Assembly (NCBI GenBank): GCA_023459055.1
Contig: JAEWVR010000019.1
Coordinates: 38,480-102,479, forward strand
Direction of reading: 5' to 3'
DNA: 64,000 nucleotides
Origin: Fibrobacterota bacterium
Lineage (GTDB): Bacteria > Fibrobacterota > Chitinivibrionia > Chitinivibrionales > Chitinispirillaceae
Of the stretch, positions 11,901-40,667 are shown piece by piece (the stretch's first letter is position 1; each line of letters opens with the position of its first letter). The position numbers and the translations under genes are program-made. The notes beneath the pieces were generated by a model. That model did no database searches. It saw only the letters and a program-made list of their open reading frames with translations, and was not told the origin of the DNA.

Positions 11901-12713
11901 GTCCTGTTCGCATCACCAACAGGAGAAAATGCGACATTTGCAATTAAAAAAATCACAAAAGCAGATCCTCAGCGTGGCATTGTCTGGTTTACAAAAAGTG
12001 ATGGATCGACTGATAGTTTAACCGATCTTCGAAAAGGTGAAGTTGACACGATGATTGGTATAGGAGATTCATTAGTACTTCCATATATAATCCCCGGTAG
12101 TTTTGTTGATGCCATAGGTAGCAACGCAAAACGTCCCTCATCGGTTATTATGAAAAATTACCAATCAAGCTGGCCGCTTACCACAGGAAGCACAATGTCA
12201 ACATCGCCTATGATTGCATTTACAAATACTAATACGACACCGGATCTTTTCGCCGTAACGACTGAAGGGTGGATCTATCGCTGGCAGCTTGCAAAAGATA
12301 TCCTTCCCGATTCAGTGTTCTGGGCGCAGTGCGGTTATGATAACGGCAGATCATGTGCATACGGTGGTGCACAGCTTTCTTCTCTTGTAAACGATAAAGA
12401 ACCGTTGTCGTTATTCAGCTATCCCAACCCCGCACTGATCAGGAAAAATGTTACTGATGTTGTCTTCAGATACAAATTCAATGGTCCGGCTACCAATGTA
12501 AAGCTTGAGATATTTACCTATTCCGGGTTTAAGGTTTATTCAAATTCAACCATGGGCAAAGCACCGGATCAGCTAAGTGGCAGCTACCCCGACTGGAACG
12601 AACTCAATGTTTCTGTTAAGGATTTCGGCCCTGCGGTTTATCGCTGCCGGATGGAAGCGAAAATAAACGGCAAGACTTATTCGCAATACTGGAAAATGGC
12701 AATCATAAAATAA
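8949..12713 (+). CDS. Large secreted protein (1254 aa) with FG-GAP-like repeats and type IX secretion C-terminal sorting domain
   Basis: Signal peptide. FG-GAP-like 'ITGDLDKDNASEIIVADS' and 'ADINRDGYLDIVAGGSNG' are present. The C-terminal about 90 aa, 'FSYPNPALIRKNVTDVVFRYKF...LEIFTYSGFKVYS', resembles a T9SS sorting domain. Confidence 0.6.
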   Translation: MIKSIRILFTGVVCAYSAVLSAALDSEIGIGLSGPYPFLLKSTSSKQLVETARDHQWSINFTRSNQADTIKLIAIRVQFQKDVSTLTTGNGLFFTTANLDNGDQDEKINYSTIEKNNDTLYKYDRLPHDSTYFALQLEMVKSYYKKVSKGKLIITSEIYPKSNNEVGYSVKDALPAYSPGGKKKKESYDDYYNRKTAGLMRFINDAIAAANDAKTNSPFANITYNASDKTFRDQAGHKTVFMIIHAGASYLTNGGDGRGKYNDTPSDLIDAFINRDFIKYYKDSLKLKTAGFPVNGKNGEMLLDEIMMCAETSNQDGLNWGIQGVLVNQIARQLGIPDLFSTSSGTSAIGSFCIMDFAGYSAGKGFIPPYPSAWVRAFMGWDNVKIASPGVRKNYQVKALTSVLDRDSATAAAYTGDDTTILLVPINDHEYYLVENRQRNLSGNKDLFKYDTTEDDNIVHIAEYPNNVNIEKNVVTTNNYRVIEKVNNNDISLPASGILVWHVDENIIRNRLANNFINADSLYRGVSLVEADGVNDLGITFSNAFYSAIYDYGGSEDIFPHQTTIKSELSTYDSIGPYTRPSTRAKDGGHTYLSMKIGTTSPVVNKELYYLSKNDGDHYITNFSDSVFNVQLKWDFSVDNWPKRAAPDQFLEPLVVDIDKTQPEKEFFLIGKSGRCYLWPSDTSVNPYNKKQTLVNRSDIFGSAVASADTVAYLDSIPNPVAMPSTVAGSIMIPSSNGKVYILKSVSVATGMILDTLRLNAIPSTTLCNYRDSSWAAGTTTGQIVFGKTFDTLHSVKLQSDSAVCAIAAVRELGAIAVMQIDGTLSLLSVNSTKADSTVKITTGIGPYTLITGDLDKDNASEIIVADSRHGIWVYNRNLTLAEGWTVEPNDLCNIYSYTAENVERRGANRALFPANTGLPSLADINRDGYLDIVAGGSNGIYAINYKGVLVYGWPAYLDKKYWYQKGAVNTSPVVVTGKSRDPLVLFASPTGENATFAIKKITKADPQRGIVWFTKSDGSTDSLTDLRKGEVDTMIGIGDSLVLPYIIPGSFVDAIGSNAKRPSSVIMKNYQSSWPLTTGSTMSTSPMIAFTNTNTTPDLFAVTTEGWIYRWQLAKDILPDSVFWAQCGYDNGRSCAYGGAQLSSLVNDKEPLSLFSYPNPALIRKNVTDVVFRYKFNGPATNVKLEIFTYSGFKVYSNSTMGKAPDQLSGSYPDWNELNVSVKDFGPAVYRCRMEAKINGKTYSQYWKMAIIK

Positions 12714-22669: not shown

Positions 22670-22750
22670 TCAAAAATCCATATTCTCGAAAAGCTTCGTG
22701 ACACTTTGCTACCAAAGTTAATGAGTGGAGAGATTAGAATTTCAATTTAA
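22670..22750 (+). pseudogene. hsdS: hsdS 3' remnant (C-terminal conserved helix of the type I RM specificity subunit)
   Basis: 'ILEKLRDTLLPKLMSGEIRI' resembles the HsdS C-terminal consensus '...kkgLmqkLltGkiRv'. There are no target-recognition domains upstream. Confidence 0.5.
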
Positions 22751-24215
22751 AGGATCTTATATGATCAAGCTCTATCTTGATTGGAATGTCATTAACGGAA
22801 TGCGGACATGTACAGAAGTTGATGAACTTTTAAGCTTGAGAAAATATATTGAGAAAAATCGGTCTTATTTTGAAATTTACTATTCTCAAGCTCACTTGTC
22901 AGACCTTGCTGGGCAGAGGTATTTGTTTGATGATACAATAAAAGAAGATCTTGAATACTTATCAAAATTAACCGAAAATAAAGCACTTGTTATCAAGAAT
23001 GATATCGTGGATATTCAGTCAATTTCACCATTAGATTGGTATCAAACAATAATTGAGGATCACAAAATTCTGAATGTTGATTCTTTTGATGATTTATTAA
23101 AAATCATTTCAACAGATTGCCCTGAAACAAAACCATTAATTGACAATTACATCAGAGTTCTTAAAAGTACCCTCCTTCCAAGCATTCCAAAACAGTTCGA
23201 ACAACTAATTCCTGATATCGCTGGTAAAACATGTTATGATGCTTTTAACGCAATATTTAAACTGAGTAAATCTTGGATGCAAACAGATGCTTATAGTAAA
23301 GTAAGAAATTTGATTCAAAGTTTGTTAAACTTTAAAACAAGCACTCTTAGCAGTACGACCAAACCATTTATAGACATTAGTAAATCTTTCGAGAATTTGG
23401 GATCAAGTGTTACTTATGAGAATATAGAACAAACTGTTGAAAAATCATTTATCAGCAAAACCCCAGTGTGGTACAACAATATCATTTCGACTTATTTAAA
23501 TCTTGATATGTATGGATACAGTCAAGATGAAATAAGCATCAAAGATAATAAGAAAAAAACATTTCAGAATACTGCAAACGATGCGATACATGCAGCCTAT
23601 GCATCTGTTTGCCATTTTTTTATTATACAAGATAAGAAAGCTCGGCGTAAAACAGAAGCTACTTACAACCACCTTGAGATTAATACAACAGTTTTGAATC
23701 CCGTTAGAAAAAAGGAAAATTCTTCTTACATTTATTTTATCAGTAACGAATATATTGTTAGTCCTCAAACCGTCAAGGATTTATACCAATCTATATTGAA
23801 AACAATTGACATTGGTACTATTTTAAAAGAAACAGCTAATGATGGAACTCAGGTAATATTTTCAGTATATTCAACGAGTATATATTATGGTTTTTTTAAT
23901 AAGATCATTATAATTCCTGAAGAAAAATCATTTCAAATTGCATTAGCATTCAAGAAACCAACAAATTGTCCTATGATTAATCTTGTTTCTGTTGTAAAGT
24001 TAGCAAATCAATTAATTTCTCTTTTTGGTATACCTAATTGTGGTACAAAACAAGTTGAATTGTCACACTTTGATGCGTTTCGCGCAAATCAAAATTCAAA
24101 TTGGACACTTTATTGGCAAGATGCATTCTTAATTGTTTTTTCTGGTGGTGTTCAATTTTATTTCCCATGGATACCTCTTGAAAACACTGAGCCAAAGAAT
24201 CCTCAAACGAATTAA
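22725..24215 (+). CDS. Hypothetical 496-aa protein embedded in the decayed type I RM locus, AT-rich, no recognisable motifs
   Basis: A long ORF with a visibly lower GC content than its neighbours. No signal peptide or TM segment. It is co-directional and tightly spaced with hsdR, 16 bp upstream of it. Confidence 0.5.
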   Translation: MERLEFQFKGSYMIKLYLDWNVINGMRTCTEVDELLSLRKYIEKNRSYFEIYYSQAHLSDLAGQRYLFDDTIKEDLEYLSKLTENKALVIKNDIVDIQSISPLDWYQTIIEDHKILNVDSFDDLLKIISTDCPETKPLIDNYIRVLKSTLLPSIPKQFEQLIPDIAGKTCYDAFNAIFKLSKSWMQTDAYSKVRNLIQSLLNFKTSTLSSTTKPFIDISKSFENLGSSVTYENIEQTVEKSFISKTPVWYNNIISTYLNLDMYGYSQDEISIKDNKKKTFQNTANDAIHAAYASVCHFFIIQDKKARRKTEATYNHLEINTTVLNPVRKKENSSYIYFISNEYIVSPQTVKDLYQSILKTIDIGTILKETANDGTQVIFSVYSTSIYYGFFNKIIIIPEEKSFQIALAFKKPTNCPMINLVSVVKLANQLISLFGIPNCGTKQVELSHFDAFRANQNSNWTLYWQDAFLIVFSGGVQFYFPWIPLENTEPKNPQTN

Positions 24216-24230
24216 CACTCGATACATTTT

Positions 24231-27200
24231 ATGAGCACAAACAAAATCACCGAATCATCAATCGAAGAATACGCAATAAAGCTGCTTGAAAAGCAGGGGT
24301 TTGACTATTATTACGGGCCACAGATCGCACCGGACAGCGAATCACCATTGCGTCAATCGTTTGAGGAGGTGCTGCTTGCCGATCGCGTAAAAAGCGCTGT
24401 CGCACGAATTAATTCATCAGTTCCCGAAAGTGCCCGTGAAGATGCTTGTAAACAGATTGAACGCATCGCATCATCTGATCTTGTTGCCAACAACGAAACC
24501 TTTCACCGCATGCTGACAGAAGGCATATCAGTAGCCTATCAGAAAGACGGCAACAAACGCGGTGATCGAGTGTGGCTTATTGATTTTAATCATCCAGACA
24601 ACAACGACTTTTATGTTGTCAACCAGTTCTCAGTAACCTCAGCCGGTATACATGGTGGCAACGCAACAAAACGACCTGATATCGTACTGTTTGTCAATGG
24701 TATCCCGCTTGTCGTCATCGAACTCAAGAATCCCGCAGACGAAAAAGCAACGTGTCACACTGCCTTTAATCAGCTTCGAACCTACAAAGAGGCAATTCCT
24801 CAACTATTTACCTATAACGGGTTTACTATTATTTCAGACGGGCTCGAAGCAAAAGCCGGCACAATCTCATCAGATTTCAACCGCTTTATGGCATGGAAAA
24901 CAGCCGATGGCAAAAGTGAAGCATCACCGCTTGTCGGTCAGCTCGAAACACTAATCTATGGAATGCTGCACCGATCAACCTTACTTGACCTTATACGACA
25001 TTTTATCGTTTTTGAAAAGTCAAAACGTGAAGATAAAAACACCGGCCTGACAACAATCGCAACAGTAAAAAAGATGGCTGCATATCATCAGTACTATGCT
25101 GTCAACAAAGCAGTGGAGTCGACCCTCCGGGCCGCCGGGTTTGGACCCTCCCCTAACCCCTCCGAGGAGGGGAACTGGTGCGGTGGTGGTTGGGATGGTG
25201 GTGATGAGTTCGGGCCGGAGTTTGAGGCTGGGGGTGTTGAGGAAAACGAAGAGTCTGATCAGGTGTACACAAGTGCAGACCTTGACATTACGGGTAGATC
25301 GTCAAATAAGAATCATATCCCTACAAACGGCACCAGCCCCTCAAGCGCGGACGGTTCAAAGAGCCCCCCCGAAAAATCCCTCCCCGGGGAGAGTGGCACG
25401 CAGTGCCGGGAGGGGTACCAACGCCGCATCCTCCCCTACAACCCCATCCTGAAACAACGCGCCCACAACTTACGAGCAAACATGACCCTCCCCGAGGTCC
25501 TGCTGTGGAACCATCTAAAAAACGGGCAGATCCATGGTTTCGATTTCGACAGACAGCGGCCGATCGATAACTTTATTGTCGATTTCTATTGTAAAGATCT
25601 CATGCTCGCTATCGAGGTTGACGGAAGTAGTCATGATGGTGAAGAGGCTCAGACCCGTGATCGTATTCGTCAGAGCAGGCTTGAAAATCTTGGTGTACAT
25701 TTTTTGCGATTTGACAACGATGAGGTTCGTCAGAATATTCGCTCTGTCGTTGCAACAATTTCCGATTGGGTTTACAAACACAAAAACAACCTTGTCGGAC
25801 GATATACAAAACCGCTCCGGCGGCTTCCATCGTCGCTGAAGGTTGATCCTGCAGAGTATGGTTTACCGGATGTGAAAGTGCAAACTGCCGGTGACAAAAA
25901 AGGTGGTGTGGTCTGGCATACGCAGGGTTCCGGCAAATCGCTCACAATGGTGTTTTACACCGGGAAAATCGTTCTTGCCATGAATAACCCGACGGTACTG
26001 ATCATAACAGACCGCAATGATCTTGATGACCAGCTTTTCGATACTTTTGCTGCATCAAAACAACTGCTTCGTCAGGAACCGGTTCAGGCCGAAAATCGTG
26101 ATCATCTCAAGGACCTGCTCAAAGTTGCGTCCGGAGGTGTAGTGTTTACAACAATTCAGAAGTTTCAGCCGGATGATGGTAATGTGTATGAAATGCTGTC
26201 TGACCGTACAAACATCGTGGTAATTGCTGATGAAGCACACCGCACACAGTATGGATTCAAACCAAAAACGATCGACGCCAAAGATGAATCAGGTGCGATT
26301 ATCGGGAAAAAGGTAGTTTACGGTTTTGCAAAGTACATGCGTGATGCACTCCCTAATGCGACCTATCTTGGATTTACCGGTACACCAATTGAAAATGTCG
26401 ATGTTAACACTCCGGCAGTGTTTGGTAATTATGTTGACATTTATGATATTTCACAAGCGGTTGAAGATGGTGCAACGGTGCGTATCTATTACGAAAGCCG
26501 CCTTGCTAAAATCGTACTGAGTGATGAGGGTCGGAAACTGATTCAGGAGCTTGATGACGAACTGAAACAGGAGGATCTGACTGATACACAGAAAGCAAAA
26601 GCGAAGTGGACACAGCTTGAAGCGTTAATTGGCAGTGCAGACAGAATACAGCAGGTTGCCCGCGACATAGTAACCCATTTTGAACTGCGTCAAGAAGCAA
26701 TTGACGGTAAGGGAATGTTTGTCACCATGTCGCGAAGAATTGCTGCTGAGCTTTACAATGCAATAATAGCATTAAGACCGCAGTGGCATAGCGATGACCG
26801 CAAAAAAGGGGTGATAAAAGTCGTCATGACATCTGCATCTTCGGATGGCCCTGAAATTGCGCGGCATCATTCAACCAAAGATGATCGCAGAGCACTAGCA
26901 GAAAGAATGAAAGATCCCGATGATGAATTGAAACTGGTAATTGTCCGTGACATGTGGCTTACCGGTTTTGATGTTCCATCACTGCATACCCTCTACATTG
27001 ACAAACCGATGAAAGGTCATACCCTGATGCAGGCAATTGCACAGGTAAACCGAATTTACAAAGATAAAACAGGTGGTCTTGTTGTTGACTATCTCGGAAT
27101 TGCAGCAGATCTAAAAAAAACACTCTCCTTTTATGCTGATTCGGGTGGAAGAGGTGATCCGGCACTTGCTCAGGAAAAAGCGGTTCAGCTCATGCTTGAG

Positions 27201-28145
27201 AAACTTGAAGTTGTATCGCAGATGTTCCATGGGTTTCCCTATGAGGATTATTTTGAAGCAGACACCGGGGCAAAATTATCAATAATCCTTGCAGCAGAGG
27301 AACATATTCTCAGTATTGATGAAGGAAAAAAACGTTTTATTAATGAAGTAGTTTTGTTGTCACAGGCATTTTCAATTGCACTGCCACATGATCAGGCAAT
27401 GGATGTAAAGGACGAAACTGCGTTCTTTCAGGCAGTAAAGGCACGTCTTGCAAAATTTGACAGAACAGGAACAGGTAGAACTGATGAGGAACTTGAGACC
27501 GCAATTCGTCAGATAGTTGACAAGGCGCTTGTTACCGAAAAGGTAATCGACATCTTTGATGCTGCCGGAATCAGGAAACCTGATATTTCGATTTTGTCAG
27601 AAGAGTTTCTGCTTGAAGTGCAGAATATGAAACATAAGAATCTTGCTCTGGAAGTACTCAAAAAATTATTGAATGATGAGATCAGTGTACGGTTGACAAA
27701 AAACATGATTCAGGGAAAAACACTGATGGAGATGCTTGAGAACTCTATCAGAAAATACCACAATAAAATCCTTACTGCAGCAGAGGTAATAGAAGAGCTG
27801 ATCAAACTCAGTAAAGAAATCACTGAAATGGATAAGATTCCCAAAGCTATGGGATTGTCAGATTATGAATATGCGTTCTATACTGCAATCGCTGATAATG
27901 ACAGCGCAAAGCAGCTCATGAAAAAAGAGCAATTACGGGAACTGGCTGTTGTTTTGTATGAGAAGGTACGCGAGAATGCATCAATAGACTGGACAATTAA
28001 AGAAAGTGTTAGAGCAAAGCTCAAGGTAATAGTAAAGCGGATTCTCAGACAATATGGGTATCCCCCGGATATGCAGATGCTCGCAACGGAAACCGTGCTC
28101 AAACAGGCAGAAAAGATAGCAGATGAACTGACAAAGGATAAGTAG
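24231..28145 (+). CDS. hsdR: Type I restriction enzyme R subunit (HsdR) carrying an in-frame DUF559-domain insertion of about 248 aa
   Basis: PD-(D/E)xK 'RPDIVLF...VVIELK'. 'QLRTYKEAIPQLFTYNGF...SDG' and 'AAYHQYYAVNKA' are HsdR-specific. Helicase motif I 'GGVVWHTQGSGKSLTM' and motif II 'VVIADEAHRTQYG' are present. The ORF is 1304 aa long, whereas HsdR is usually about 1000-1100 aa. Confidence 0.85.
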   Translation: MSTNKITESSIEEYAIKLLEKQGFDYYYGPQIAPDSESPLRQSFEEVLLADRVKSAVARINSSVPESAREDACKQIERIASSDLVANNETFHRMLTEGISVAYQKDGNKRGDRVWLIDFNHPDNNDFYVVNQFSVTSAGIHGGNATKRPDIVLFVNGIPLVVIELKNPADEKATCHTAFNQLRTYKEAIPQLFTYNGFTIISDGLEAKAGTISSDFNRFMAWKTADGKSEASPLVGQLETLIYGMLHRSTLLDLIRHFIVFEKSKREDKNTGLTTIATVKKMAAYHQYYAVNKAVESTLRAAGFGPSPNPSEEGNWCGGGWDGGDEFGPEFEAGGVEENEESDQVYTSADLDITGRSSNKNHIPTNGTSPSSADGSKSPPEKSLPGESGTQCREGYQRRILPYNPILKQRAHNLRANMTLPEVLLWNHLKNGQIHGFDFDRQRPIDNFIVDFYCKDLMLAIEVDGSSHDGEEAQTRDRIRQSRLENLGVHFLRFDNDEVRQNIRSVVATISDWVYKHKNNLVGRYTKPLRRLPSSLKVDPAEYGLPDVKVQTAGDKKGGVVWHTQGSGKSLTMVFYTGKIVLAMNNPTVLIITDRNDLDDQLFDTFAASKQLLRQEPVQAENRDHLKDLLKVASGGVVFTTIQKFQPDDGNVYEMLSDRTNIVVIADEAHRTQYGFKPKTIDAKDESGAIIGKKVVYGFAKYMRDALPNATYLGFTGTPIENVDVNTPAVFGNYVDIYDISQAVEDGATVRIYYESRLAKIVLSDEGRKLIQELDDELKQEDLTDTQKAKAKWTQLEALIGSADRIQQVARDIVTHFELRQEAIDGKGMFVTMSRRIAAELYNAIIALRPQWHSDDRKKGVIKVVMTSASSDGPEIARHHSTKDDRRALAERMKDPDDELKLVIVRDMWLTGFDVPSLHTLYIDKPMKGHTLMQAIAQVNRIYKDKTGGLVVDYLGIAADLKKTLSFYADSGGRGDPALAQEKAVQLMLEKLEVVSQMFHGFPYEDYFEADTGAKLSIILAAEEHILSIDEGKKRFINEVVLLSQAFSIALPHDQAMDVKDETAFFQAVKARLAKFDRTGTGRTDEELETAIRQIVDKALVTEKVIDIFDAAGIRKPDISILSEEFLLEVQNMKHKNLALEVLKKLLNDEISVRLTKNMIQGKTLMEMLENSIRKYHNKILTAAEVIEELIKLSKEITEMDKIPKAMGLSDYEYAFYTAIADNDSAKQLMKKEQLRELAVVLYEKVRENASIDWTIKESVRAKLKVIVKRILRQYGYPPDMQMLATETVLKQAEKIADELTKDK
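25132..25875 (+). mobile_element. In-frame insertion within hsdR: GC-rich palindromic repeats followed by a DUF559 (Vsr-like endonuclease) domain
   Basis: It sits between 'AVNKAVESTLRA' and 'QTAGDKKGGVVWHTQGSGKS', which are normally adjacent. The DUF559-like block is 'LPEVLLWNHLKNGQIHGFDFDRQRPIDNFIVDFYCKDLMLAIEVDGSSHDGEEAQTRDRIRQSRLENLGVHFLRFDNDEV'. GC-rich modules at 25146-25185 and 25378-25432 are paralogous to those at 22120-22333. Confidence 0.6.
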
Positions 28146-28337: not shown

Positions 28338-29474
28338 ATGACAAAAGAAAAATTCGCAATATTCATTGACGCCGAAAATCTCATTAACTGGATCAAAAAC
28401 GATGGTCCGGAGAAGCTGCTTGAGGAGTTGAGTACGCAGGGGCAGGTTATTGTGCGTCGGGCGTATGGGAAATGGACAAATCAGAATCTGAGCCAGCTTC
28501 AGGAGAATCTGAATCGCAACGGATTTGAACTGCTGCATAATTTTCATCCTGTCAGTGGGAAAAATTCAAGCGATATTCAGATGACCGTTGACGCAATGGA
28601 GTATGCACTTAAACTATCTGATGTTAGCTGGTTTGTTCTGGCAACCGGCGACAGTGATTTTTCTCCGCTCTTTAGAAAGCTGCGGGAGATTGGCAAAGAG
28701 GTTATCGGGATTGGTCCCAAATCACCCTTAAGTGAATGCGTAAAAACATCATGCTCACGATATATCTACACATATGATGAAAATGCGGATGAAAAAGAGA
28801 TACTCGCATTTGAACGTGACGAAATTGAGGAGCTGCTGGAATCAATTGTAGTAACCCATGATGGGCCAATAAATATTTCACATCTAAAAAATCATATTCT
28901 TCAAATAGACAATGCATTCAATGAAAAACAAATGGGGTTTAAGAATTTCAGCAGTTTTATTGATTCCTTTGACTTTCTTAAGATTGAAAAAGATATGGTG
29001 AGTTACGTTCGTGTCTCTGATGCAAAAAACAGCTATAAAACACTACTCAAAAGAAAAAACTGGGACTTTCTTCCAAAAACAATAATTGACAAATTGTATA
29101 AAGAATGTATCACCATACCAGCGCTTCCCCGCCAGCAGCTTATTGATAAAGTGATTGCAAAAAATATCGAAGGAACCTCGTCCAGTATCGTCAGGAAGTT
29201 TTTACAGATAATTTACAAAGCAAGACTTATGCAGACTCAGCTGACAAACGGTGATGACAAAATCGTGAAAGTAATTTTAACTGACGAGTATCTTCAAAAA
29301 ATCGACCTCGCAATGCTCTCCCGGTTACTTTCTGCGATCAACGAAACAAGCAGCAAGATAGAAAAAGATGAACTGAAAAAACTATTATATGGTAACTATA
29401 CCGATAAGGAATTTGAGAAAATTATGCTGATTGCAAAAGAGAATATGATAAACAAGGATGACAATGATCATTGA
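28338..29474 (+). CDS. NYN-domain (LabA-like RNase) protein with two OST-HTH/LOTUS domains
   Basis: The N-terminus '[10 protein letters not shown]...[10 protein letters not shown]...[18 protein letters not shown]' is NYN-like. The downstream repeats '[31 protein letters not shown]' are OST-HTH-like. Confidence 0.65.
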
Positions 29475-29847: not shown

Positions 29848-30714
29848 ATGAAAAACAGCAAAATAGTGCTGAAAGACTATCTTGATTTCAGATCATATAT
29901 AAAAGATTATATTGAATACAAAAATGCACACGGCGAACAGCTTACCAATCGTTCGTTTGCTTCAGCCGTTGGTATTAGCTCATCCTCCTGGTTGACTACA
30001 ATTTTAAATGGAAAAAAAGGGATCACCGATAAAACAGTCGGTGCTATTTCAGATTTCTTTAAGCATAACGATTGGGATCGAGAGTACTTCAGGATCCTTG
30101 TCAATTTCAATCAGGCAAAGACAGTTGAAAGTCGAAACGTTTTTTTCACTCAACTGAAACAACTTCTTTTAAAAAGAGGTTATCTGGCCATACGGGTTCT
30201 TGATAACGATCAGTACGAATACTATTCCAAATGGTATTATAGTGCAGTCCGGTCAATTATTGGAATGATACCTGTTGGTGATGAATATGAACGGCTTGCA
30301 CGTTATGTTTCACCATCAATTACCGCAGCCCAGGCTAAAAAGTCAATCAAATTACTTTTAAAACTTGGGTTGATCGAGAAATTGGATGCAGGATATTATA
30401 GACTGACGAATAGTGCAATTTCAACTGGTTACAATGTAAAATCGCTTGCAGTCGCCAATTTTCAGAGAGAAACAATGAAACTTGGTATTGAGGCAATCGA
30501 TCGTTATGATTCATCAATACGTGATATATCATCTCTGAGTATTGGAATCTCCGAAGCCGGTTTTCAGAAGATTTCCGCTATGATCGCAGAATTCAGAAAA
30601 GCGATAGTAGAGGTTGCCAATACCGACAATGATGCCGACAGGGTGTATCAGGTCAATTTTCAGGTTTTTCCATTATCCAGGGTACTCAACCATGATGAGA
30701 ATGAGAAACTATGA
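29848..30714 (+). CDS. Putative HTH-type regulator resembling the Fibrobacter-type TIGR02147 paralogous family
   Basis: 'YLDFRSYIKDYIEYKNAHGEQLTNRSFASAVGISSSSWLTTILNGKKGIT' matches that family's N-terminal pattern as I recall it. This was not verified by search. Confidence 0.4.
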   Translation: MKNSKIVLKDYLDFRSYIKDYIEYKNAHGEQLTNRSFASAVGISSSSWLTTILNGKKGITDKTVGAISDFFKHNDWDREYFRILVNFNQAKTVESRNVFFTQLKQLLLKRGYLAIRVLDNDQYEYYSKWYYSAVRSIIGMIPVGDEYERLARYVSPSITAAQAKKSIKLLLKLGLIEKLDAGYYRLTNSAISTGYNVKSLAVANFQRETMKLGIEAIDRYDSSIRDISSLSIGISEAGFQKISAMIAEFRKAIVEVANTDNDADRVYQVNFQVFPLSRVLNHDENEKL

Positions 30715-31966: not shown

Positions 31967-34900
31967 TCAATTGTGCGACTTACGTTTCTCCTGACGTTTA
32001 CGTTCCCGTTCCTCTTTTAAAAAACGGGCAATCAACTCTCTTTGAAACCACAGGCTTCTATTAATGGTCGTTTCCAACGCAGCAATCGTTCCACTTTTTT
32101 CTGCACCTTCAATTTCGATCATCTCCGATACTGGTGCATTTTTCAGTGAAGGCTGTGTGTGCAAATCTTTATTACTTTGTAAATATTTTAGCCATTCCTG
32201 CATAATATTCATCTGATTCTCAAGAACACTTAATACAGACTTCATTGTATCGGGGTTGACCGTATCACTCACACCGGTATCCGCATTGTTCAATGATGAT
32301 GCCACTTTATTCATTCCGGAAGTCAATGCAGCACTTAATTCGTTAGCGATTTTTACAATTGACGCTTCAGTAACCTGATTTTTATGTTCTTTTTCCTGAA
32401 TCACAATTTGTGGAGATAGATTCTTACCTTGTGCAATTGCATTGCTGATATCACTCAGGCCATCACCAACTTTACATAACTGTAATACCGCCTGCCCTAC
32501 CTTATCATCAGCTTTTGCAAACTTATTCTGATTAAAGGATCGTTTAATTTCCTCCCAACGTAACCGCTCAACTTCAGAAAGACACCCCAGAAGCTCTTTC
32601 CACTTAAGTAAATTGGCTTCTGCCCCCGTAGTCAATGTCTGGGCATCATTTTCGTAGGAGCGCAAGACGGTTCCGAATAATTCTTCATCATTCATAACAG
32701 GTACAATACGTTCTGCAATACGGTTCATATTTCTGTATGATCCCTGAAGCTTAAAAGCAGGTTCAGTCCTGTATTCATTTGCCTGTGCAGCGCTGCGTAT
32801 ATACTCCTGATTTACTTTTAAAACGATATCCCGTACGCGCAGTAATTTTCGTATTACCGAAACAAGATCACTCATGAGGTTGGCACTGTAATCACCACTC
32901 AGCTCAATTTTTTCCATTGAGTTGTTTTCGCATGCATTTACAAAAGCATAGAGATCACAAAGCGGTCGTTTTGTCATTTCACTTAAAACGGGATTTGATG
33001 TCAATGCATTTTCGATATAACTGAGTTTAAAGGCTTTTTCATTGGCGCTCAGCATGTCACCAAGATTATAGGTATCTGCACGGTTTGCAAGCATATCGGG
33101 TATTTTAAATCGTTCGCCGCTTTCGGTATACGGGTTACCGGCCATAACAACGGCAACTTTCTTGCCCCTGAAATCATAAGTACGACTTTTACCATTGTAA
33201 ACGCCCTCAATTTTACGCTGGGCATCACAAAGTGAAATGAATTTTTCCAGAAACTCCGGATTACAATGCTGAATATCGTCAACATAGATCATGACATTGT
33301 TTCCCATTTCAAGCGCAAGATTCAGTTTCTGCAGCTCCTCACGGGAACTTGCGTTTGGAGCCTCCGCCGGATCCAGTGATGTAACCTTATTACCAACTGC
33401 GGGACCGTTGATTTTCATAAATATCAATCCAACCCTGCTTGCAACATATTCCATCAATGTTGTTTTTCCATAGCCCGGTGGTGAGATCAGAAGCAACATT
33501 CCCGATAAGTCAGTACGTTTCTTTTCGCCAACAACGCCGATCTGCTTTGCGAGGTTATCACCAATAAGTGGCAGATACAACTCATTAATTAGCTTATTAC
33601 GCACAAAGGAGCTCATGATTTTCGGATTAAACTCATCAAGTTTCAGCCTTTGTTTATAGGAATCACGAACGGTTCTTTTTATGTCCCTGCATGCCTGGAA
33701 TTTGACAACCACATTTTTCTCGTAAACATCCAGTTCATGCACAAACATTGCGTATGTCAACTTTAATTCTCCATTGACAATTTTAGGATGATCACCCCGA
33801 AGCCCCTTAATTGTCCGTGATGTCGGTGTTTCAATGATTTCACCCGGTAGTCGTACTTGTAAACCGGTAATTAATTCAAGTGCGATTAGCACTGCTGCTT
33901 CTTCAATAAAAGGTTTCAACTCAGGAACATTTAATTCACTGAAGCAGGCCCGGATCCAGCTATGCACCATTTCAAACTGCGCTGCAGGATCTCCATTAAG
34001 CAGATTAACCGATTCTATAAATTTCTGATAAACAGTTTTTTCTTTCAGACAGGCAGTCACTTTCCGGCATAGTGTATCAGCTTCAATGCTGATTACAAAT
34101 TTATTACCTCTACCCCGTTCATCACACAAATACCTGACAGCATCGGAAGCAAGCGAATCATCACAAAAGCAGACAGTTTTACAGAAATCCGCAACCATGC
34201 GTTGCAATTCCTTAATACAAGAGTGATCATACATTCCTTTATTAAAAGTAGTCTGCGCAATATGCATGCCTTTTAATTGCTTGTCAATCCTCTCCTTGAT
34301 CTCCTGATCCTGCGGCCATAGCCAGAATAATCGCGCGAGTGCCCGTGCTGATGGCATATAGGTTAGAAGATCTATTGACAAACTTAATTCCGCACAGTTT
34401 TTTATGATCAGCGCGGCATCGAAATCATGTACACCCTTCACATACCCTTCATCATAACGGCTGGTCATGAATTTAGAGACTTTTACAACAAGTTCATCGA
34501 CCTGACTTGCTGCAATTGAATCCATTGGATCAAACGATCCATCCTTTGATGCCTTAATAATCTGAAAGGCAAGATATTCCGCTCTGTAAACATTACTATT
34601 TTCAGAAATCAGTTCCTGTGCCCAGACATTCTTTGTGGAATCAAGCTCTTCAGAAACGATTGGTTCGTAAAAATCGGTTCCTGTAAGATGGAAATACATT
34701 TGCTCATTTTTGTAGATGATGGCAAGATCAAGTGGCTGGGTATTTACAGAAAAATTATGACGCCCGAGCTTTATAATATCTTTTCCATCAACATATAATT
34801 CCAATGAATCAAGAAGTTTACGTGATGCATCTTCATGAAGCGTTTTAAGGCGGCTCTGGATATCATCTGCTTTTACCGAATCACCAAGCGTATCAAGCTT

Positions 34901-37369
34901 CTCAATCAGCTCCCGCACTTTGTCAACCATCATATCTGATGCAAGATAGGTATTGATATCATTCTGAGTTGTAAATGAACGCAGACGGGTTTCAATTCCC
35001 TGCAAAATGCGCTCGGCAGCGCTCATAAGTGATGTACATGTGCGGTTACGCTGTTCCTGAAGCATTACCCTTTTAGACTCAAACGCCTGATTAACTTCAA
35101 TTCTCTTCTGAGCAAGTACCGGTACAAATTCATCAAAGTCGGCGAATCTGCTATCAAGTTCTTCAAACAGTACCATAATTTTTGATAAAAATTCATCGCA
35201 CTTTGAAGCATCATCGGTAATATCAAGATAATTTGCAATTGACTGATCAAGCAGTTTAATCTGTGCGTTAAATTCTGCCGTCCCCTCACCACTACGCAGG
35301 TTTTTCACGTGCATCCTCAGACGGCTTCTTATCCTGTTAAGTTCTCCGAATATCAATGCAATTTTTTCTGTGATTTGTGTAGCATTGACAGGATCATCAA
35401 TTTTAAGATTACCGACAATCTCGACCAGAAGCTCAAGATCTTTACCCGTTTTATCAATTTCAGCCTCAACCCTGCGTCCATCAGATGTTTTCGTAACCGA
35501 AGCGACATCATTATCGTGCTTTACAACAGCATCATGATATGCCCGAAGCCCATCAGGGGTAAGTAGAAACGCGATACAGGCGCTGCTGATCTTTTCGAAT
35601 GCATCCTTTGCACTTTTCTCCAGAATACTGATTGCCTCAAGATCAGCATATTTCATCTCTTTTAGAGATGTAATATCGCCACGAAGTGAACGGATATCAG
35701 CCAGCGCCGTTACAAATCTATCAATACGTTTCGGCTCAAGATTACCTGTTGACAGCAGAAGTTCATCTGAGCGCTGCGTTACTTTGGAAAGTGCATCACG
35801 TGTCTGCTTTTTTACTGCATTCACTTTCTCAAACTCTTCAACCGCTGATGCAGCAATGGTTCTTATGGCGATAAGTGTATTCTTTAAACCAAAACCTTCC
35901 GGTTTATCAATCCAGAAATGAGAATCGAGTATGCGATTCGCTTCCCGTGAAATATCGATGTATAAGTTGGCATATGAATCCTCTTTTAGCAGCAGACTTA
36001 AAACAGTCTGACATTCAGACATGCAACGAACGATTTCCTTATTTCCAACTTTGTAGAGAAGGGAATCGGTATTGACTGCAGGTGGTATATAACCGGTACC
36101 AAAAAACGGTGTCTGCCATATTTGTAATACATGACTGTTTCGAGGTTCTTTTTCTGCTTTAAACAGAACCTGTTCTCCATTGTCAAAGTAGGTAAAGCCA
36201 TGGCAGATAACCGGAGTGTCTACTTTCTGTTCAATTCGATTGTAAGGTAATATGACACAAATACCATCAACAGCATTATAGAAAACATATTGAAAATCTT
36301 CACCATTAGGTGCGGCTATTTTTTTCTCGAAGCGTAAATTTTCAATTGTCGAATCAAATATTTTAAATACACCAGTCTGAAGGTAATACCCATTTGGAAA
36401 AATGATACCGCTGTTATCAGGAAGTAATATGCAGGCATCCTCAATGGTGTCGATTCGTACAACTTTCTGAGTTTTTTCGTTGTAAAGAAGATATCTGAAA
36501 TTCTTCTCCTGAAAAGGGCGAACTTTAAGAAGAATTAAATTTCCGACAATTGCATAAAATATTTCAGCGTCATCAAGTGTCTGATCTTTATTCTCCACTG
36601 ATTCACAATAGATACCTCTTCCGGTGCTCGTATTATCTTCAACCTTTATTGTAAGATCACCACCGATTGTTTCAACAAACAAGCGGTCATCTATAGAAAT
36701 GTGTGGATGCTCACCCGGACGGAAATTTTCTCTTCTTGTCCGTTTCCATTCAAATTCATGCTGCGGAGGCGATACCAGCTCCTGTTCACTGCGATTGTTG
36801 ATATATATGAGTTTACCTTTTTCAAAACCCCATTTGAATGTCTTTATATCAGAGACATTATTACCGGTTCTGAAAACCATATACAGAAAAGGACCATTAA
36901 CAACGAGTTTAGTCAGAAACGTGTTTCTATAGTATTTATAGAGTTCCTGAAAATCACGGATAAAATTGTCATTTTTTAAAATATCAATCGATACTTCATT
37001 AAAATGATGATTTTCATATTCATAAACAGAAAAAACATCTTCAATAGCCGTTGTCGATTTAAGACCGAATTGTACATTATAACCAAAGATAAAACGGTTT
37101 CCAAATGATGCCAGATCCCGCGGAATGCAGCTGTTTTCGGTAGTAATCCGTTCACTGCATATGAGAGCTGTATTCACAGCTCCAAAGACATCTTTACGTG
37201 CTTTATTAACTTTATCAAGTGTGTCACGAAGCTGTTTGGCACATTGATCAAGACGCTGCCTGATCACTACATAGGTGCCACTATCAATCTGGTTTTGTTC
37301 AATATCATTTGAAGTATTCTGAACGGGTTCCTTATCCTGTGGATTATCTGTCTTTTCCATATATGTCAA
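31967..37369 (-). CDS. Giant (1800 aa) soluble protein with a single MoxR/dynein-type AAA+ ATPase module in its C-terminal third; function unknown
   Basis: Walker A 'ISPPGYGKTTLMEY'. Walker B 'VMIYVDDIQHCNP'. Sensor region 'VVMAGNPYTESGERFKIPDMLANRADTYNLG' follows the MoxR 'NP...xLxxAxxDRF' pattern. No TM or signal peptide. Long predicted helical and coiled regions. Confidence 0.7.
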   Translation of the reverse strand: MTYMEKTDNPQDKEPVQNTSNDIEQNQIDSGTYVVIRQRLDQCAKQLRDTLDKVNKARKDVFGAVNTALICSERITTENSCIPRDLASFGNRFIFGYNVQFGLKSTTAIEDVFSVYEYENHHFNEVSIDILKNDNFIRDFQELYKYYRNTFLTKLVVNGPFLYMVFRTGNNVSDIKTFKWGFEKGKLIYINNRSEQELVSPPQHEFEWKRTRRENFRPGEHPHISIDDRLFVETIGGDLTIKVEDNTSTGRGIYCESVENKDQTLDDAEIFYAIVGNLILLKVRPFQEKNFRYLLYNEKTQKVVRIDTIEDACILLPDNSGIIFPNGYYLQTGVFKIFDSTIENLRFEKKIAAPNGEDFQYVFYNAVDGICVILPYNRIEQKVDTPVICHGFTYFDNGEQVLFKAEKEPRNSHVLQIWQTPFFGTGYIPPAVNTDSLLYKVGNKEIVRCMSECQTVLSLLLKEDSYANLYIDISREANRILDSHFWIDKPEGFGLKNTLIAIRTIAASAVEEFEKVNAVKKQTRDALSKVTQRSDELLLSTGNLEPKRIDRFVTALADIRSLRGDITSLKEMKYADLEAISILEKSAKDAFEKISSACIAFLLTPDGLRAYHDAVVKHDNDVASVTKTSDGRRVEAEIDKTGKDLELLVEIVGNLKIDDPVNATQITEKIALIFGELNRIRSRLRMHVKNLRSGEGTAEFNAQIKLLDQSIANYLDITDDASKCDEFLSKIMVLFEELDSRFADFDEFVPVLAQKRIEVNQAFESKRVMLQEQRNRTCTSLMSAAERILQGIETRLRSFTTQNDINTYLASDMMVDKVRELIEKLDTLGDSVKADDIQSRLKTLHEDASRKLLDSLELYVDGKDIIKLGRHNFSVNTQPLDLAIIYKNEQMYFHLTGTDFYEPIVSEELDSTKNVWAQELISENSNVYRAEYLAFQIIKASKDGSFDPMDSIAASQVDELVVKVSKFMTSRYDEGYVKGVHDFDAALIIKNCAELSLSIDLLTYMPSARALARLFWLWPQDQEIKERIDKQLKGMHIAQTTFNKGMYDHSCIKELQRMVADFCKTVCFCDDSLASDAVRYLCDERGRGNKFVISIEADTLCRKVTACLKEKTVYQKFIESVNLLNGDPAAQFEMVHSWIRACFSELNVPELKPFIEEAAVLIALELITGLQVRLPGEIIETPTSRTIKGLRGDHPKIVNGELKLTYAMFVHELDVYEKNVVVKFQACRDIKRTVRDSYKQRLKLDEFNPKIMSSFVRNKLINELYLPLIGDNLAKQIGVVGEKKRTDLSGMLLLISPPGYGKTTLMEYVASRVGLIFMKINGPAVGNKVTSLDPAEAPNASSREELQKLNLALEMGNNVMIYVDDIQHCNPEFLEKFISLCDAQRKIEGVYNGKSRTYDFRGKKVAVVMAGNPYTESGERFKIPDMLANRADTYNLGDMLSANEKAFKLSYIENALTSNPVLSEMTKRPLCDLYAFVNACENNSMEKIELSGDYSANLMSDLVSVIRKLLRVRDIVLKVNQEYIRSAAQANEYRTEPAFKLQGSYRNMNRIAERIVPVMNDEELFGTVLRSYENDAQTLTTGAEANLLKWKELLGCLSEVERLRWEEIKRSFNQNKFAKADDKVGQAVLQLCKVGDGLSDISNAIAQGKNLSPQIVIQEKEHKNQVTEASIVKIANELSAALTSGMNKVASSLNNADTGVSDTVNPDTMKSVLSVLENQMNIMQEWLKYLQSNKDLHTQPSLKNAPVSEMIEIEGAEKSGTIAALETTINRSLWFQRELIARFLKEERERKRQEKRKSHN

Positions 37370-37587
37370 TTTCCTGAGGAATGTACAATGCAGTCTTGAA
37401 AAATGTGATTAACAGCCCTGCCGTGATAGTGTTATTGTGTCATTAACAAGGAAGGATTAGTGCCAATTGAGTACCCCTACCTCAGCTAAAAGCAGCGGGA
37501 CCTCCCCAGACAATGTCGTTAACTTAGTGTTTAAAAGGTGGCAGTGTACTTAGACGCTCGCCCCCACCCGCTCGCAAAGCCGAGCGA

Positions 37588-37648
37588 CCTCCCCCGCAGG
37601 AGGGAGATATAATTGTTTAAAAACCAAAGAATACCTCCCTCCTGCAGG
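37588..37648. promoter_or_regulatory. Perfect 11-12 bp GC-rich inverted repeat (GCAGGAGGGAG ... CTCCCTCCTGC) in the 333-bp gap between the flotillin and giant AAA+ genes
   Basis: Read directly. The loop is about 28 nt and no U-tract follows on the transcribed (minus) strand. It belongs to the CCCTCC palindrome family. Confidence 0.4.
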
Positions 37649-37701
37649 AAAGATCTGGTTGCTTTGAGCCAGGGTTAGTGCGTTCAGTCGTCACAGTGGC
37701 A

Positions 37702-39963
37702 TTACATATTGATTATCGACTCAGCCGGTTTACTGCCAATACCAAGTTTTTCAACAGTACTCAGTATCCCCTGAAGCATCCCCTTTTCATCACCTTTTGA
37801 CAAGGACAAGAGCTTCATGATAAGTGCACTGACCGTTAGGTTTTTAAGATCTCCGGAACTCAGATTGAATTTAGCAACAAACTCTTTTATCTGATGTTTA
37901 AAATAATCACCGTCACCATTGACAAACGTTTTCTTTACATCGGTGAGGACCGCACTGTTATTAACCAGTTTATCAACTGATTTACCTTGAACAATTGAAC
38001 CGATGACCTTGTCGAAGAACATGGTTTCACCACCAACAATATCAATCTTGGCACTCTTGAGCGCTTCCTGAATAACAGCAGCCTGTGCATCAGCGATTTT
38101 TGCCTGTGTCTCAATGGATGCAATCTCAATGGTTTTATCTTTGTCAAGTTTTAGTTTGAACTCTTCGTGATCTCTTCCCGGACCGTCAAAGTTTTTCATC
38201 GCATCGGATTTTTCCTTTATGCCGAGAGCTTCTGCGGAATACCTTTTTGACAATACTGATGCCTCGGCTGTTCCCTTCTTTTCGATGGTGGTCGCCATTG
38301 CTTCACCACCTTTAGCCTCTGCCAGTGCTTTTGCCTCAATACCCTTTGCTTCAGCAAGACCTTTCAGTTCAAGTACGTGAGCTTCTGCGGTACCTTGTTT
38401 TTCCAATGCAACAGCTTTAGCCTCAAGGCCTTTGCTTTCGGCAACAATCTTAAGTTCAATACCTTTTGCCTCTGCTGCAGCTTTTACCTCGATACCCTTA
38501 GCTTCTGTTGTATAGTTCATCTCCTGAACCTTTACTTTTGCACCACCTTCAAGTTCAATTGCTTTGGCACGTGCTTCCATGACCCTTACTTCTGCCATTC
38601 CGTTAATCGCCTCTTCAGATGCACGTACGTCAGCAATGATCTTACGCGCTTCAGCATCCTTCTCTGATGCACGAAGTTTTGCGTCGGCTTCGAGGATCTG
38701 CTGTTCACATATCTGCTGAGCTGCCTTTTTACTTGTCTCTGCCGCAACAAGTTCTTTCACCTGGCTGGCAAGCGCTGCTTCTTCCGCTTGTGTCAACGTC
38801 ACCTTTTTCTGACGATCCGCAGCGGCAAAAGCTTCCGTATCTTTAATCCGCTGCTGTTCTGCAACAGTTTCCTTTTCTACGGCAACACGTTCACGTATAA
38901 CGCTTTGAATATTTTTACGTTCTTCTTCAACCGCACGCTCTTTTGCAATTTCGGCCAGTGTGACGATCTTTTCTTTTTCTGTTTTTTCAATGAGTCTGTC
39001 TTTGTCAACCCGCTCAGCTTCAACCAGTTCAACACGTTCACGTGCTTTCTGTGCAACAATAATCTGACGATTCTTGTTTTCTTCAGCAATTGCAATTTCC
39101 TCTTCCGTCGTGATACGTGCACGCTCAGCTTTCAGCCGTTCCTCGCTTGCGATTTTTTGTGCTTCAGCCTGTTCTCTTGACTTGATTGCAGCTATTTCAC
39201 GTATCTGCTTCTCCTGAGCTTCTGTCTGCTGACGCTGCAATTCAAGGATTGCCTCTTTAGCCTGAACATCCTGCTGTTCAATAGTCTTTTCCTTATCACG
39301 CTGGATCTGGTTTGCCTTTATCATTTCGCGAGCTGTTATTTCTGTAATCTTCTTAAATCCTTCAACATCGAGGATATTATCTTTACTCAAATGTTCAATC
39401 GATGTCTGTTCGAGATAGTCAATTGCGGCATCGTCAAGAACATATCCATTAAGATCTGTTCCGATTACCTGCAAAATCTCCTCTTTAAATTTATTTCTCT
39501 CGGTATAGAGTTGTACAAAATCAAACTTCTTTCCTACAGTCTTAAGAGCTTCAGAGAATTTTGCATCAAAGAAAGCCTCCATTGTTTTATGATCTGATGC
39601 TTTTTCACACCCGAGTGACTGTGCTACTTTAAGGACATCCTCGGCACGATGATTTACACGAACAAAGAATGCGACTTTGATATCTGCGCGAATATTATCC
39701 TGGCACAGAAGACCATCAGGTCCGCGGCGATCAGTTTCGATACGTTTCACAGAAATATCCATAATTTCACATTTATGAATTATCGGTACAACCCAGATTC
39801 CACCAAAAGAGACCTTCTGCCCCCCGATTCCATTTCTGACAAGTGCTTTTCCCTGATCGACCTTTTTATAAAATTTTGATAATGCGGTAAGAAATGCAAT
39901 CAAAAAGAAAACTACAACACCTACAATAATTAGTGCTAACATTGGAATTTGCTCAAAATTCAT
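37702..39963 (-). CDS. SPFH/band-7 flotillin-like protein (YqiK/FloT-like) with extended EA-repeat coiled-coil
   Basis: N-terminal TM helix. SPFH core 'GGQKVSFGGIWVVPIIHKCEIMDISVKRIETDR...IRADIKVAFFVRV'. Long E/A/K-rich heptads with tandem 'EAKGIE(V/A)KA' units. Flotillin-like C-terminus. Confidence 0.8.
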   Translation of the reverse strand: MNFEQIPMLALIIVGVVVFFLIAFLTALSKFYKKVDQGKALVRNGIGGQKVSFGGIWVVPIIHKCEIMDISVKRIETDRRGPDGLLCQDNIRADIKVAFFVRVNHRAEDVLKVAQSLGCEKASDHKTMEAFFDAKFSEALKTVGKKFDFVQLYTERNKFKEEILQVIGTDLNGYVLDDAAIDYLEQTSIEHLSKDNILDVEGFKKITEITAREMIKANQIQRDKEKTIEQQDVQAKEAILELQRQQTEAQEKQIREIAAIKSREQAEAQKIASEERLKAERARITTEEEIAIAEENKNRQIIVAQKARERVELVEAERVDKDRLIEKTEKEKIVTLAEIAKERAVEEERKNIQSVIRERVAVEKETVAEQQRIKDTEAFAAADRQKKVTLTQAEEAALASQVKELVAAETSKKAAQQICEQQILEADAKLRASEKDAEARKIIADVRASEEAINGMAEVRVMEARAKAIELEGGAKVKVQEMNYTTEAKGIEVKAAAEAKGIELKIVAESKGLEAKAVALEKQGTAEAHVLELKGLAEAKGIEAKALAEAKGGEAMATTIEKKGTAEASVLSKRYSAEALGIKEKSDAMKNFDGPGRDHEEFKLKLDKDKTIEIASIETQAKIADAQAAVIQEALKSAKIDIVGGETMFFDKVIGSIVQGKSVDKLVNNSAVLTDVKKTFVNGDGDYFKHQIKEFVAKFNLSSGDLKNLTVSALIMKLLSLSKGDEKGMLQGILSTVEKLGIGSKPAESIINM

Positions 39964-40667
39964 CTGCTACCTCCTTTTGAATCCTCAACGTGAAGTATAT
40001 CTTTTGTTAGTTTTATTTCGTAAAGATCTTTTTCCTTGTCATAATGCACAACAAATGCATCATCCCCTTTATGGATAATTGTGCCATCAACACTTTTTAC
40101 ATTAATACGAATAGGTGCACCATCACGTTCAATCTCAGCCTGACCGATCCTGCCAGGTTGAACATCAGTTATCAAGGTGCATACTTTGTTGACAATCTGA
40201 ACAGGTTGAGCGATCCCTTTCAGTTCACGAAAGAATTTCCTGAATGGTGATGTAATCGCTTTTGTAATAAATGCGGCCAATAAAATTGCGGGTAATTGAA
40301 TCACTCCACTTAACAAAACAGTGAGATCAAAGCTAAGTTGAAGCCCAACGGCTATCGCCCACCAGAAAAGCGTGATAAAACTGAACAGAAGCATCACGGG
40401 AACATCGCGAAGGTTTAAAAAAACCAGAATTCCCTGCCCAATACCTTCAGCATCCACATCAGTGTCAAGATCAGCATCAAAATCAAAATGTGCGTCAAGA
40501 ATATTATGCTCTATCCCACCAATAACAACCGTTAACCAGTAAAGCAGCGCAAGAACCAGAAGTATTGATGGTACAACATTAAAACCAAAAATAGATGCGG
40601 TAAAAATTTCTAACAAAATGTAATCCTGATGATAGCGTTTACAATCATAAGCAGCACATATGATCAC
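39960..40667 (-). CDS. NfeD-like membrane protein (short form: TM helices + C-terminal OB-fold)
   Basis: Multiple N-terminal TM helices. The C-terminus 'VCTLITDVQPGRIGQAEIERDGAPIRINVKSVDGTIIHKGDDAFVV' follows the NfeD OB-fold pattern. It overlaps the flotillin start by 4 bp, the classic NfeD-SPFH operon arrangement. Confidence 0.7.
   Translation of the reverse strand: MIICAAYDCKRYHQDYILLEIFTASIFGFNVVPSILLVLALLYWLTVVIGGIEHNILDAHFDFDADLDTDVDAEGIGQGILVFLNLRDVPVMLLFSFITLFWWAIAVGLQLSFDLTVLLSGVIQLPAILLAAFITKAITSPFRKFFRELKGIAQPVQIVNKVCTLITDVQPGRIGQAEIERDGAPIRINVKSVDGTIIHKGDDAFVVHYDKEKDLYEIKLTKDILHVEDSKGGSR

Follow-up and report, generated by a model that had tools for sequence, protein, structure and literature searches.

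The question raised by this locus is what a very large ATPase with a single AAA+ module does in its bacterial host. The gene lies in a stretch of 64,000 nucleotides (nt), hereafter the window, from a Fibrobacterota bacterium of the Chitinispirillaceae (GenBank assembly GCA_023459055.1, contig JAEWVR010000019.1, positions 38,480 to 102,479). An earlier note on this DNA, called the original prediction below, read from the letters a soluble protein of 1800 amino acids with one MoxR-like AAA+ module, no other known domains and possibly a new architecture. The decisive clue that it missed stands immediately upstream, in the form of a flotillin gene and a YqiJ gene. It is this gene context that decides how the AAA+ protein is to be read. 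The gene is the third one of a conserved yqiJ(nfeD-like)-flotillin-AAA+ module, and its product is a genuine member of the family of DUF3686-DUF7902-AAA+ proteins, named "DNA repair ATPase" in NCBI. These statements on identity and context are made with high confidence. The function is most likely exerted on membrane scaffolds of flotillin and PspA and not in DNA repair. The locus is composed of the following features.

39960..40616, minus strand: YqiJ/YuaF (NfeD-like) protein with multiple transmembrane (TM) segments, 218 amino acids, first gene of the triad; YqiJ_N
37702..39963, minus strand: flotillin/YqiK-type SPFH protein, 753 amino acids, directly upstream of the AAA+ gene; Band_7
37587..37655, minus strand: near-perfect hairpin with a stem of ~25 bp, inside the 332 nt that separate the flotillin gene from the AAA+ gene
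31967..37360, minus strand: AAA+ protein gene, 1797 amino acids from ATG, the start also used in the identical database protein P0001 and in gene calling on the source contig

The three-gene locus and its relatives

Regarding the first gene, the 218-residue protein matches YqiJ_N of Pfam (E 6.4e-5, 23.6 bits against a cutoff of 23), and the end of its gene overlaps the flotillin start by 4 nt. In the flotillin, a single TM segment at the N-terminus is accompanied by a Band_7/SPFH domain and by a long coiled coil rich in E, A and K; homologues of this protein carry the names "flotillin family protein" or YqiK. Scans of the full-length flotillin against Pfam, NCBIfam and the PDB gave no match because the coiled coil trips the HMMER bias filter; residues 1-220 scanned alone matched Band_7 with E 1.7e-12. 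Most database copies of the 753-residue flotillin are likewise without a precomputed Pfam domain. As the residues KFYKK directly follow the TM segment, the positive-inside rule suggests that the SPFH domain and the coiled coil would face the cytoplasm, which is the compartment of the ATPase.

The conservation of this arrangement was surveyed in 80 loci of ATPase relatives on one-genome-per-species contigs, which were searched with the neighbour proteins of the window; synteny was counted in those 56 loci in which the sequence upstream of the ATPase start extends over 3.2 kb or more. A flotillin homologue is located directly upstream on the same strand in 53 of the 56 loci, which come from other phyla, with gaps of 14-1,545 nt, and a YqiJ homologue is also detectable in 44 of the 56. 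Clustering of all neighbouring open reading frames (ORFs), followed by Pfam scans of the representatives, revealed further recurrent neighbours. PspA/IM30 occurs in 10 of the 80 loci and lies directly upstream of YqiJ in nine of them, mostly from Bacteroidota. A CesT_Tir_1 gene (E 8e-54) occurs in six loci, and CesT/Tir precedes the YqiJ-flotillin genes in some Bacteroidota. An HTH-S24 regulator gene is present in eight loci. A PLD-family gene (PLDc_2, E 1.9e-29) is present in seven, L009 (2947-3630) among them, and is placed just upstream of YqiJ. PspA, CesT/Tir, HTH-S24 and PLD-family genes are all absent from the 64-kb window, in which no PspA-like sequence was found near the triad or elsewhere. 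The window thus holds an "abbreviated" three-gene form lacking PspA and CesT/Tir.

The survey independently confirms a linkage that had been reported by Ravi et al. (mSystems 2024; PMC11237479). They describe a "β-propeller + coiled-coil + AAA-ATPase" protein in a CesT/Tir-PspA-YqiJ-flotillin operon, propose a chaperone-like, membrane-dynamics role for this operon, note the addition of a PLD-family hydrolase in some Proteobacteria and find "abbreviated operons" without PspA to be widely distributed; their supplementary table contains a neighbourhood of Dokdonia donghaensis (ANH61663.1) with the same gene order. The ATPase is not mentioned in an earlier survey of SPFH-NfeD operons (PMC2636767). 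On the PLD-family genes, which PMC11237479 remarks on in some operons, the present loci show that they stand beside YqiJ outside Proteobacteria as well.

The 332-nt spacer in front of the ATPase gene folds strongly as a whole (z-score -5.07). Its hairpin is not a dispersed repeat within the window, and an Rfam scan returned only sub-threshold look-alikes of miRNA precursors, which marks it as a generic hairpin. Its possible roles are those of a terminator, an attenuator or an RNA-stability element that sets the flotillin:ATPase ratio.

Several side observations were made at the related loci. A protein of ~300 amino acids without a Pfam match is encoded directly downstream of the ATPase gene in one locus (L026:12352-13263) and recurs in eight others, and a classical-AAA protein of 605 amino acids was found in four loci, in one of which (L010:13447-15264) its gene follows the matched segment downstream at a distance of ~1.6 kb. 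In L007, from a Desulfococcaceae metagenome-assembled genome, the first 229 codons of the ATPase are duplicated at 132-821, ~6 kb upstream of the intact gene (6920-12448); four minus-strand ORFs, one of them for a P-loop protein of 922 amino acids, separate the two copies, and the upstream flotillin is lacking. The arrangement suggests that foreign genes have been inserted here, where the ATPase gene has its 5′ end.

Family membership, domain layout and the AAA+ module

The reading frame 31967..37369 on the minus strand is unbroken and counts 1800 codons from a TTG at 37369, which agrees with the original prediction on the size of the ORF but not on that of the protein: the database protein P0001 (100% identical) starts at the ATG at 37360, three codons inside the TTG, and has 1797 amino acids, and the gene predicted on the source contig begins at the same ATG. 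ATG 37360 is the likely start codon; residue numbers given here count the TTG as residue 1. The protein is soluble and very large, as had been stated, with no membrane-spanning hydrophobic segment (maximal 19-residue Kyte-Doolittle mean, 1.59).

Pfam revealed three components. DUF3686 (PF12458) matches residues 47-485 over profile positions 2-448 of 448 (E 9.8e-181, 601.6 bits against a cutoff of 25), DUF7902 (PF25472) matches residues 607-688 (E 3.7e-21, 75.6 bits against a cutoff of 26), and AAA_5 and AAA match residues 1292-1418 (E 4e-7 and 5e-6). The two former ones are catalogued domains of unknown function, and Pfam describes PF12458 as an "ATPase involved in DNA repair". The view that the protein has no other known domains is therefore not tenable. 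In formal terms, DUF3686/DUF7902 is a known multi-domain family of the kind that the original prediction had named as its refutation, though it explains the length only descriptively.

In a word-indexed search, the homologues with ~50% identity over at least 90% of the length numbered at least 4,798 and came from several phyla. The top 120 are 1,630-2,020 amino acids long, contain the three Pfam domains as well and, except for three close relatives (88-90% identity), show 47-59% identity to the query over 90% or more of its length. These 120 belong to Planctomycetota, Verrucomicrobiota, Bacteroidota, Clostridia, Desulfobacterota and Sumerlaeota, with one EukProt entry; members from other phyla show 45-59% identity and are collinear over 90-99% of the length. 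The EukProt entry (P0096, 1711 amino acids, 51% identity) is a full-length member that could reflect horizontal transfer or bacterial contamination. NCBI lists the homologues as "DNA repair ATPase" or "AAA family ATPase", and some JGI records call them "MoxR-like ATPase". In an exhaustive HMMER scan, the N-terminal 477 residues matched 675 clusters at 50% identity. Among the 150 matches listed, the domain is N-terminal in all near-full-length proteins (1,600-2,000 amino acids) but P0139, whose best match lies at 669-963, and the shorter matches look like fragments. Two motif peptides (with QGSYRNMN as one seed) led to 587 confirmed relatives on the one-genome-per-species contigs. The supposedly new architecture is thus a layout common to thousands of proteins, covered by two Pfam families and described in PMC11237479. 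The family is widespread, catalogued and computationally described, and the present protein adds one member to it; no experimental study of any member was found in the literature.

The domain layout was modelled with AlphaFold2 (AF2) from 32-sequence alignments in two parts, residues 4-1103 and 1030-1800, with predicted local distance difference test (pLDDT) scores of 79 and 76. The features of the protein, all encoded on the minus strand, are listed from the N-terminus.

37184..37282, minus strand: long N-terminal helix, residues ~30-62, which holds the conserved GTYE-I-R-RL motif (AF2 model)
35915..37231, minus strand: DUF3686, residues 47-485 (Pfam)
36113..37168, minus strand: predicted β-propeller core of DUF3686, residues ~68-419, ~28 β-strands (AF2/DSSP, Foldseek)
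34799..36061, minus strand: predicted long array of α-helical bundles (spectrin-like, three-helix), residues ~437-857, including DUF7902
35306..35551, minus strand: DUF7902, residues 607-688 (Pfam)
33539..34777, minus strand: middle region, residues ~865-1277 (AF2 models)
34154..34183, minus strand: Cys patch CKTVCFCDDS, residues 1063-1072, in unconserved alignment columns
33065..33505, minus strand: AAA+ α/β core, residues 1289-1435 (Pfam, AF2, Foldseek, conservation)
33458..33481, minus strand: Walker A PPGYGK1302TT, invariant
33275..33292, minus strand: Walker B MIYVD1364D1365, invariant
33173..33214, minus strand: pre-sensor-1 β-hairpin, residues 1386-1399 (AF2)
residue N1412 (MAGNP), minus strand: sensor-1, invariant
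33074..33091, minus strand: Arg finger R1430 in LANRAD, invariant
32588..33040, minus strand: AAA+ lid/helical domain, residues ~1444-1594 (AF2, conservation)
32720..32746, minus strand: sensor-2 motif QGSYR1546NMNR in the lid, invariant
31970..32587, minus strand: C-terminal tail, residues 1595-1800; little conserved, predicted as helical with low confidence, rich in K, R and E at its end

According to the models, the protein folds as an N-terminal β-propeller, followed by spectrin-like helical bundles and then one AAA+ module, so that the structure prediction with a propeller check, which had been proposed along with the original prediction, did bring out a propeller. The propeller domain gave Foldseek matches to the propellers of Fbw7, β-TrCP, Elp1, LGI1 and prolyl-oligopeptidase, and the helical region gave structural matches to helical bundles. 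As a self-comparison with hhalign detected no blade repeats in the sequence, the evidence for the propeller comes from the AF2 model and Foldseek. The helices of the bundle array are 25-58 residues long. In the middle region, a small β unit (865-903), a helical domain (to ~1170), a second small β unit (1184-1205) and long helices (to ~1277) that enter the AAA+ core follow one another in the model. The suggestion that Cys-rich patches could bind metal found no support, since CKTVCFCDDS lies in unconserved columns.

Exactly one AAA+ module had been expected near the C-terminus, and this is what was found, intact, by Pfam (1292-1418) and in the AF2 core (1289-1435). A second, degenerate AAA module was sought and rejected after inspection of the AF2 models and Foldseek comparisons, and several tandem AAA+ modules, as in midasin/dynein-like proteins, were not found in the protein. 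All the catalytic residues (K1302, D1364/D1365, N1412, R1430 and R1546) are invariant across the 32 aligned sequences, as are the family motifs SPPGYGKTT, DDIQH, MAGNP, LANRAD and QGSYRNMN; the conservation of the Walker and sensor residues, to which the original prediction had pointed as a check, is thus complete in this alignment. Walker B is DD, not the usual DE, and the β2-α2 loop, which is the expected site of pore loop 1, has no aromatic residue. Searches of the PDB with the single sequence or the 32-sequence profile yielded only Walker A-level matches (RuvB and p97) and no solved relative. In Foldseek comparisons, the fold matched NorQ/CbbQ (MoxR proteins), RuvB and Lon about equally, with E ~1e-5. 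At the site of the helix-2 insert, AF2 predicts a plain loop (1322-1339) and then a single α2 helix (1340-1355). The description that fits the module best is that of a divergent AAA+ in the style of the HCLR clade, marked by its pre-sensor-1 hairpin and neither MoxR nor RuvB, and the most sensible structural reading is a putative homo-oligomeric ring that carries large appendages.

These features bear on the two labels found in databases. The NCBI name rests on a weak RuvB-like match at Walker A, and it would make the protein a RuvB-like DNA motor in DNA repair. RuvB is indeed among the best matches to the Walker A region (RuvB_N of Pfam, E 8e-4; ruvB of NCBIfam, E 5e-4; top of the PDB profile search, E 4e-4), and the pore loop without an aromatic residue is also RuvB-like. 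The sensor-2 of RuvB reads GTPRIANR, which resembles GSYRNMNR of the present protein. However, the RuvB matches cover only ~50 residues and stay below the curated cutoffs (RuvB_N, 19.7 bits against 27; ruvB of NCBIfam, 19 and 17.9 bits against 282 and 299), Pfam detects neither the RuvB C-terminal domain nor a recognisable DNA-binding domain, and no ruvA is located nearby in the window. Moreover, repair and recombination genes are absent from the recurrent neighbours, which are membrane proteins (flotillin, YqiJ and PspA), and a role as a DNA-repair motor is highly improbable.

The other label, followed by the original prediction, would make the protein a MoxR-class AAA+ chaperone of new architecture, in which a ring with giant appendages and metal-binding Cys patches serves metal-cofactor insertion or complex maturation. 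With 30.6 bits, the AAA_5 match exceeds its cutoff of 22 and is at a level similar to that of the generic AAA profile (27.4 bits), the top Foldseek matches are NorQ and CbbQ, and some JGI records of homologues use the MoxR label. However, these structural matches are essentially equalled by RuvB and Lon, and AAA_3 is not matched in Pfam. The β-hairpin insert in helix 2 is not seen in the AF2 model. The original prediction had itself noted the lack of a VWA/MIDAS domain, and such a partner was found neither in the protein nor among the genes next to it in the window and those that recur around it in the 80 loci. Together with the unconserved Cys patch and an architecture that is already known, these points make a MoxR-type function very unlikely, and the MoxR-like designation is not upheld.

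A proposed role on flotillin and PspA scaffolds

As a whole, the reading of the protein as a family member in the yqiJ-flotillin-AAA+ module that acts on flotillin/PspA membrane scaffolds is considered probable, if not by a wide measure. In the proposed mechanism, a ring would be built through the AAA+ domains, and the propeller-tipped helical arms would touch the cytoplasmic oligomer of flotillin (SPFH), and also PspA where present. Propellers, carried here on long helical arms, are typical protein-binding platforms. ATP hydrolysis would then drive the assembly, disassembly or remodelling of the membrane scaffolds or of their clients under envelope stress. The logic would parallel that of pairs between an SPFH- or ESCRT-III-type scaffold and an AAA+ protein, such as HflK/C-FtsH, prohibitin-m-AAA and Snf7-Vps4. 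The chances that the protein remodels flotillin/PspA assemblies in this way are judged to be even. A more specific version, in which six propeller-tipped spectrin-like arms grip a cytoplasmic flotillin dome and the ring works as a non-proteolytic "flotillin disassemblase or client extractor", is a tentative idea that is rather unlikely.

Several points weigh against the proposal. Co-transcription with the flotillin gene is not certain because of the 332-nt spacer and its strong hairpin, and an adjacent flotillin is missing in three of the 56 loci. The DD Walker B might imply slow hydrolysis or switch-like behaviour, and classical polypeptide threading is doubtful since the β2-α2 loop lacks an aromatic residue. 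The YqiJK operon of E. coli is not known to include such an ATPase. The ATPase is reported to be present only "in some cases" of YqiJK operons (PMC11237479). As many such operons do without it, the ATPase would be an accessory and not a universal partner.

The surroundings of the triad raise one further alternative, namely an anti-phage or conflict triad, in which the propeller would sense infection and flotillin, PspA or PLD would bring about a membrane-directed abortive infection. The other genes of the window that bear on it are the following.

22725..24215: ORF of 496 amino acids upstream of the HsdR gene, no family match at all
24231..28145, plus strand: type I restriction HsdR, 1304 amino acids, with a DUF559 (Vsr-like endonuclease)/MTES_1575 module and a Gly/Glu-rich low-complexity stretch
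29848..30714 and 28338..29474, plus strand: between the HsdR and ATPase genes, encoding a DUF4423 protein and an NYN + OST-HTH/LOTUS protein

In HsdR, the DUF559/MTES_1575 module and the low-complexity stretch lie between the HSDR_N and helicase domains, which is an unusual insertion for an R subunit. In favour of a conflict system, the HsdR and NYN/OST-HTH genes are ~4 kb from the AAA+ gene, genes for a PLD-family protein and for a LexA-like regulator (HTH-S24) occur in some related loci, and in L007 a 5′ fragment of the ATPase gene is duplicated with several inserted genes between the copies. A β-propeller joined to an NTPase is also a common sensor layout of conflict systems. Against it, PADLOC gave no significant match (best E 0.011, in the P-loop region only), and sequences from different phyla are ~50% identical over 1,700 residues, a very high and uniform conservation that is unlike that of fast-evolving defence genes. 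The gene order is fixed, the partners are membrane scaffolds of a housekeeping type, and the other flank carries ordinary metabolism genes (pantothenate kinase and quinolinate phosphoribosyltransferase). A defence function is accordingly regarded as unlikely, and action on flotillin/PspA scaffolds is preferred.

Bacterial flotillins and their NfeD/YqiJ partners are widespread, and their molecular function is debated. An ATPase of 1,600-2,000 residues that is strictly conserved, linked to them in an operon and intact in its catalytic motifs would provide a handle on the energy-dependent step in which flotillin scaffolds take part. If the disassemblase version of the proposal is true, the protein would supply bacterial flotillin microdomains with their missing ATP-driven engine, distinct in mechanism from FtsH-HflK/C and Vps4-ESCRT-III, and bacterial flotillins would gain a concrete, testable biochemical function. 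The re-examination also corrects the misleading labels "DNA repair ATPase" and "MoxR-like".

Comparison with known systems

At the level of the AAA+ module, the closest comparison is with RuvB, Lon and Clp of the HCLR clade, with which the present protein shares a pre-sensor-1 β-hairpin without a helix-2 insert. A GPPGxGKT-type Walker A, an L-x-N/D-R context of the Arg finger and a G-x-x-R-x-x-x-R sensor-2 are further motifs shared with this clade. Unlike these proteins, it scores below the family cutoffs, has none of their accessory domains, carries a DD Walker B and begins with ~1,290 unrelated N-terminal residues. The likeness to MoxR proteins (NorQ, CbbQ and RavA) consists of a weak AAA_5 match and the top Foldseek matches, whereas the helix-2 insert (in the model) and the VWA partner are missing.

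In gene context and architecture, the protein corresponds to the DUF3686/DUF7902/AAA+ proteins of the operon described in PMC11237479, with the same layout, the invariant motifs and the upstream YqiJ and flotillin genes. The window differs from that operon in lacking PspA and CesT/Tir over its 64 kb, in the 332-nt hairpin spacer that precedes the ATPase gene and in its host from the Chitinispirillaceae (Fibrobacterota). YqiJ as an NfeD-type partner fits the SPFH-NfeD operon rule (PMC2636767).

The pairs of SPFH and AAA+ proteins, i.e., HflK/C-FtsH, prohibitin-m-AAA protease and erlin-p97, show a genetic or physical coupling of an SPFH scaffold to a ring ATPase; in the present locus, the coupling is that of neighbouring genes, and the ring is putative. 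In contrast to pairs of the HflK/C-FtsH type, the present ATPase has neither a protease domain nor a TM anchor, and its flotillin would be cytoplasmic, whereas the HflK/C scaffold is on the periplasmic side. It also differs from the classical clade of FtsH and p97 by its pre-sensor-1 hairpin and DD Walker B. As with Vps4-ESCRT-III and the AAA+ ATPases associated with PspA, an ATPase gene stands beside that of a membrane-remodelling polymer, with PspA in nine of the 80 loci. The proposed role, the ATP-driven turnover of a membrane-bound assembly, would also be shared. Unlike Vps4, the protein has no MIT domain and does not belong to the classical AAA clade; its size is about fourfold, it carries a propeller and spectrin-like arms, and its window is without PspA.

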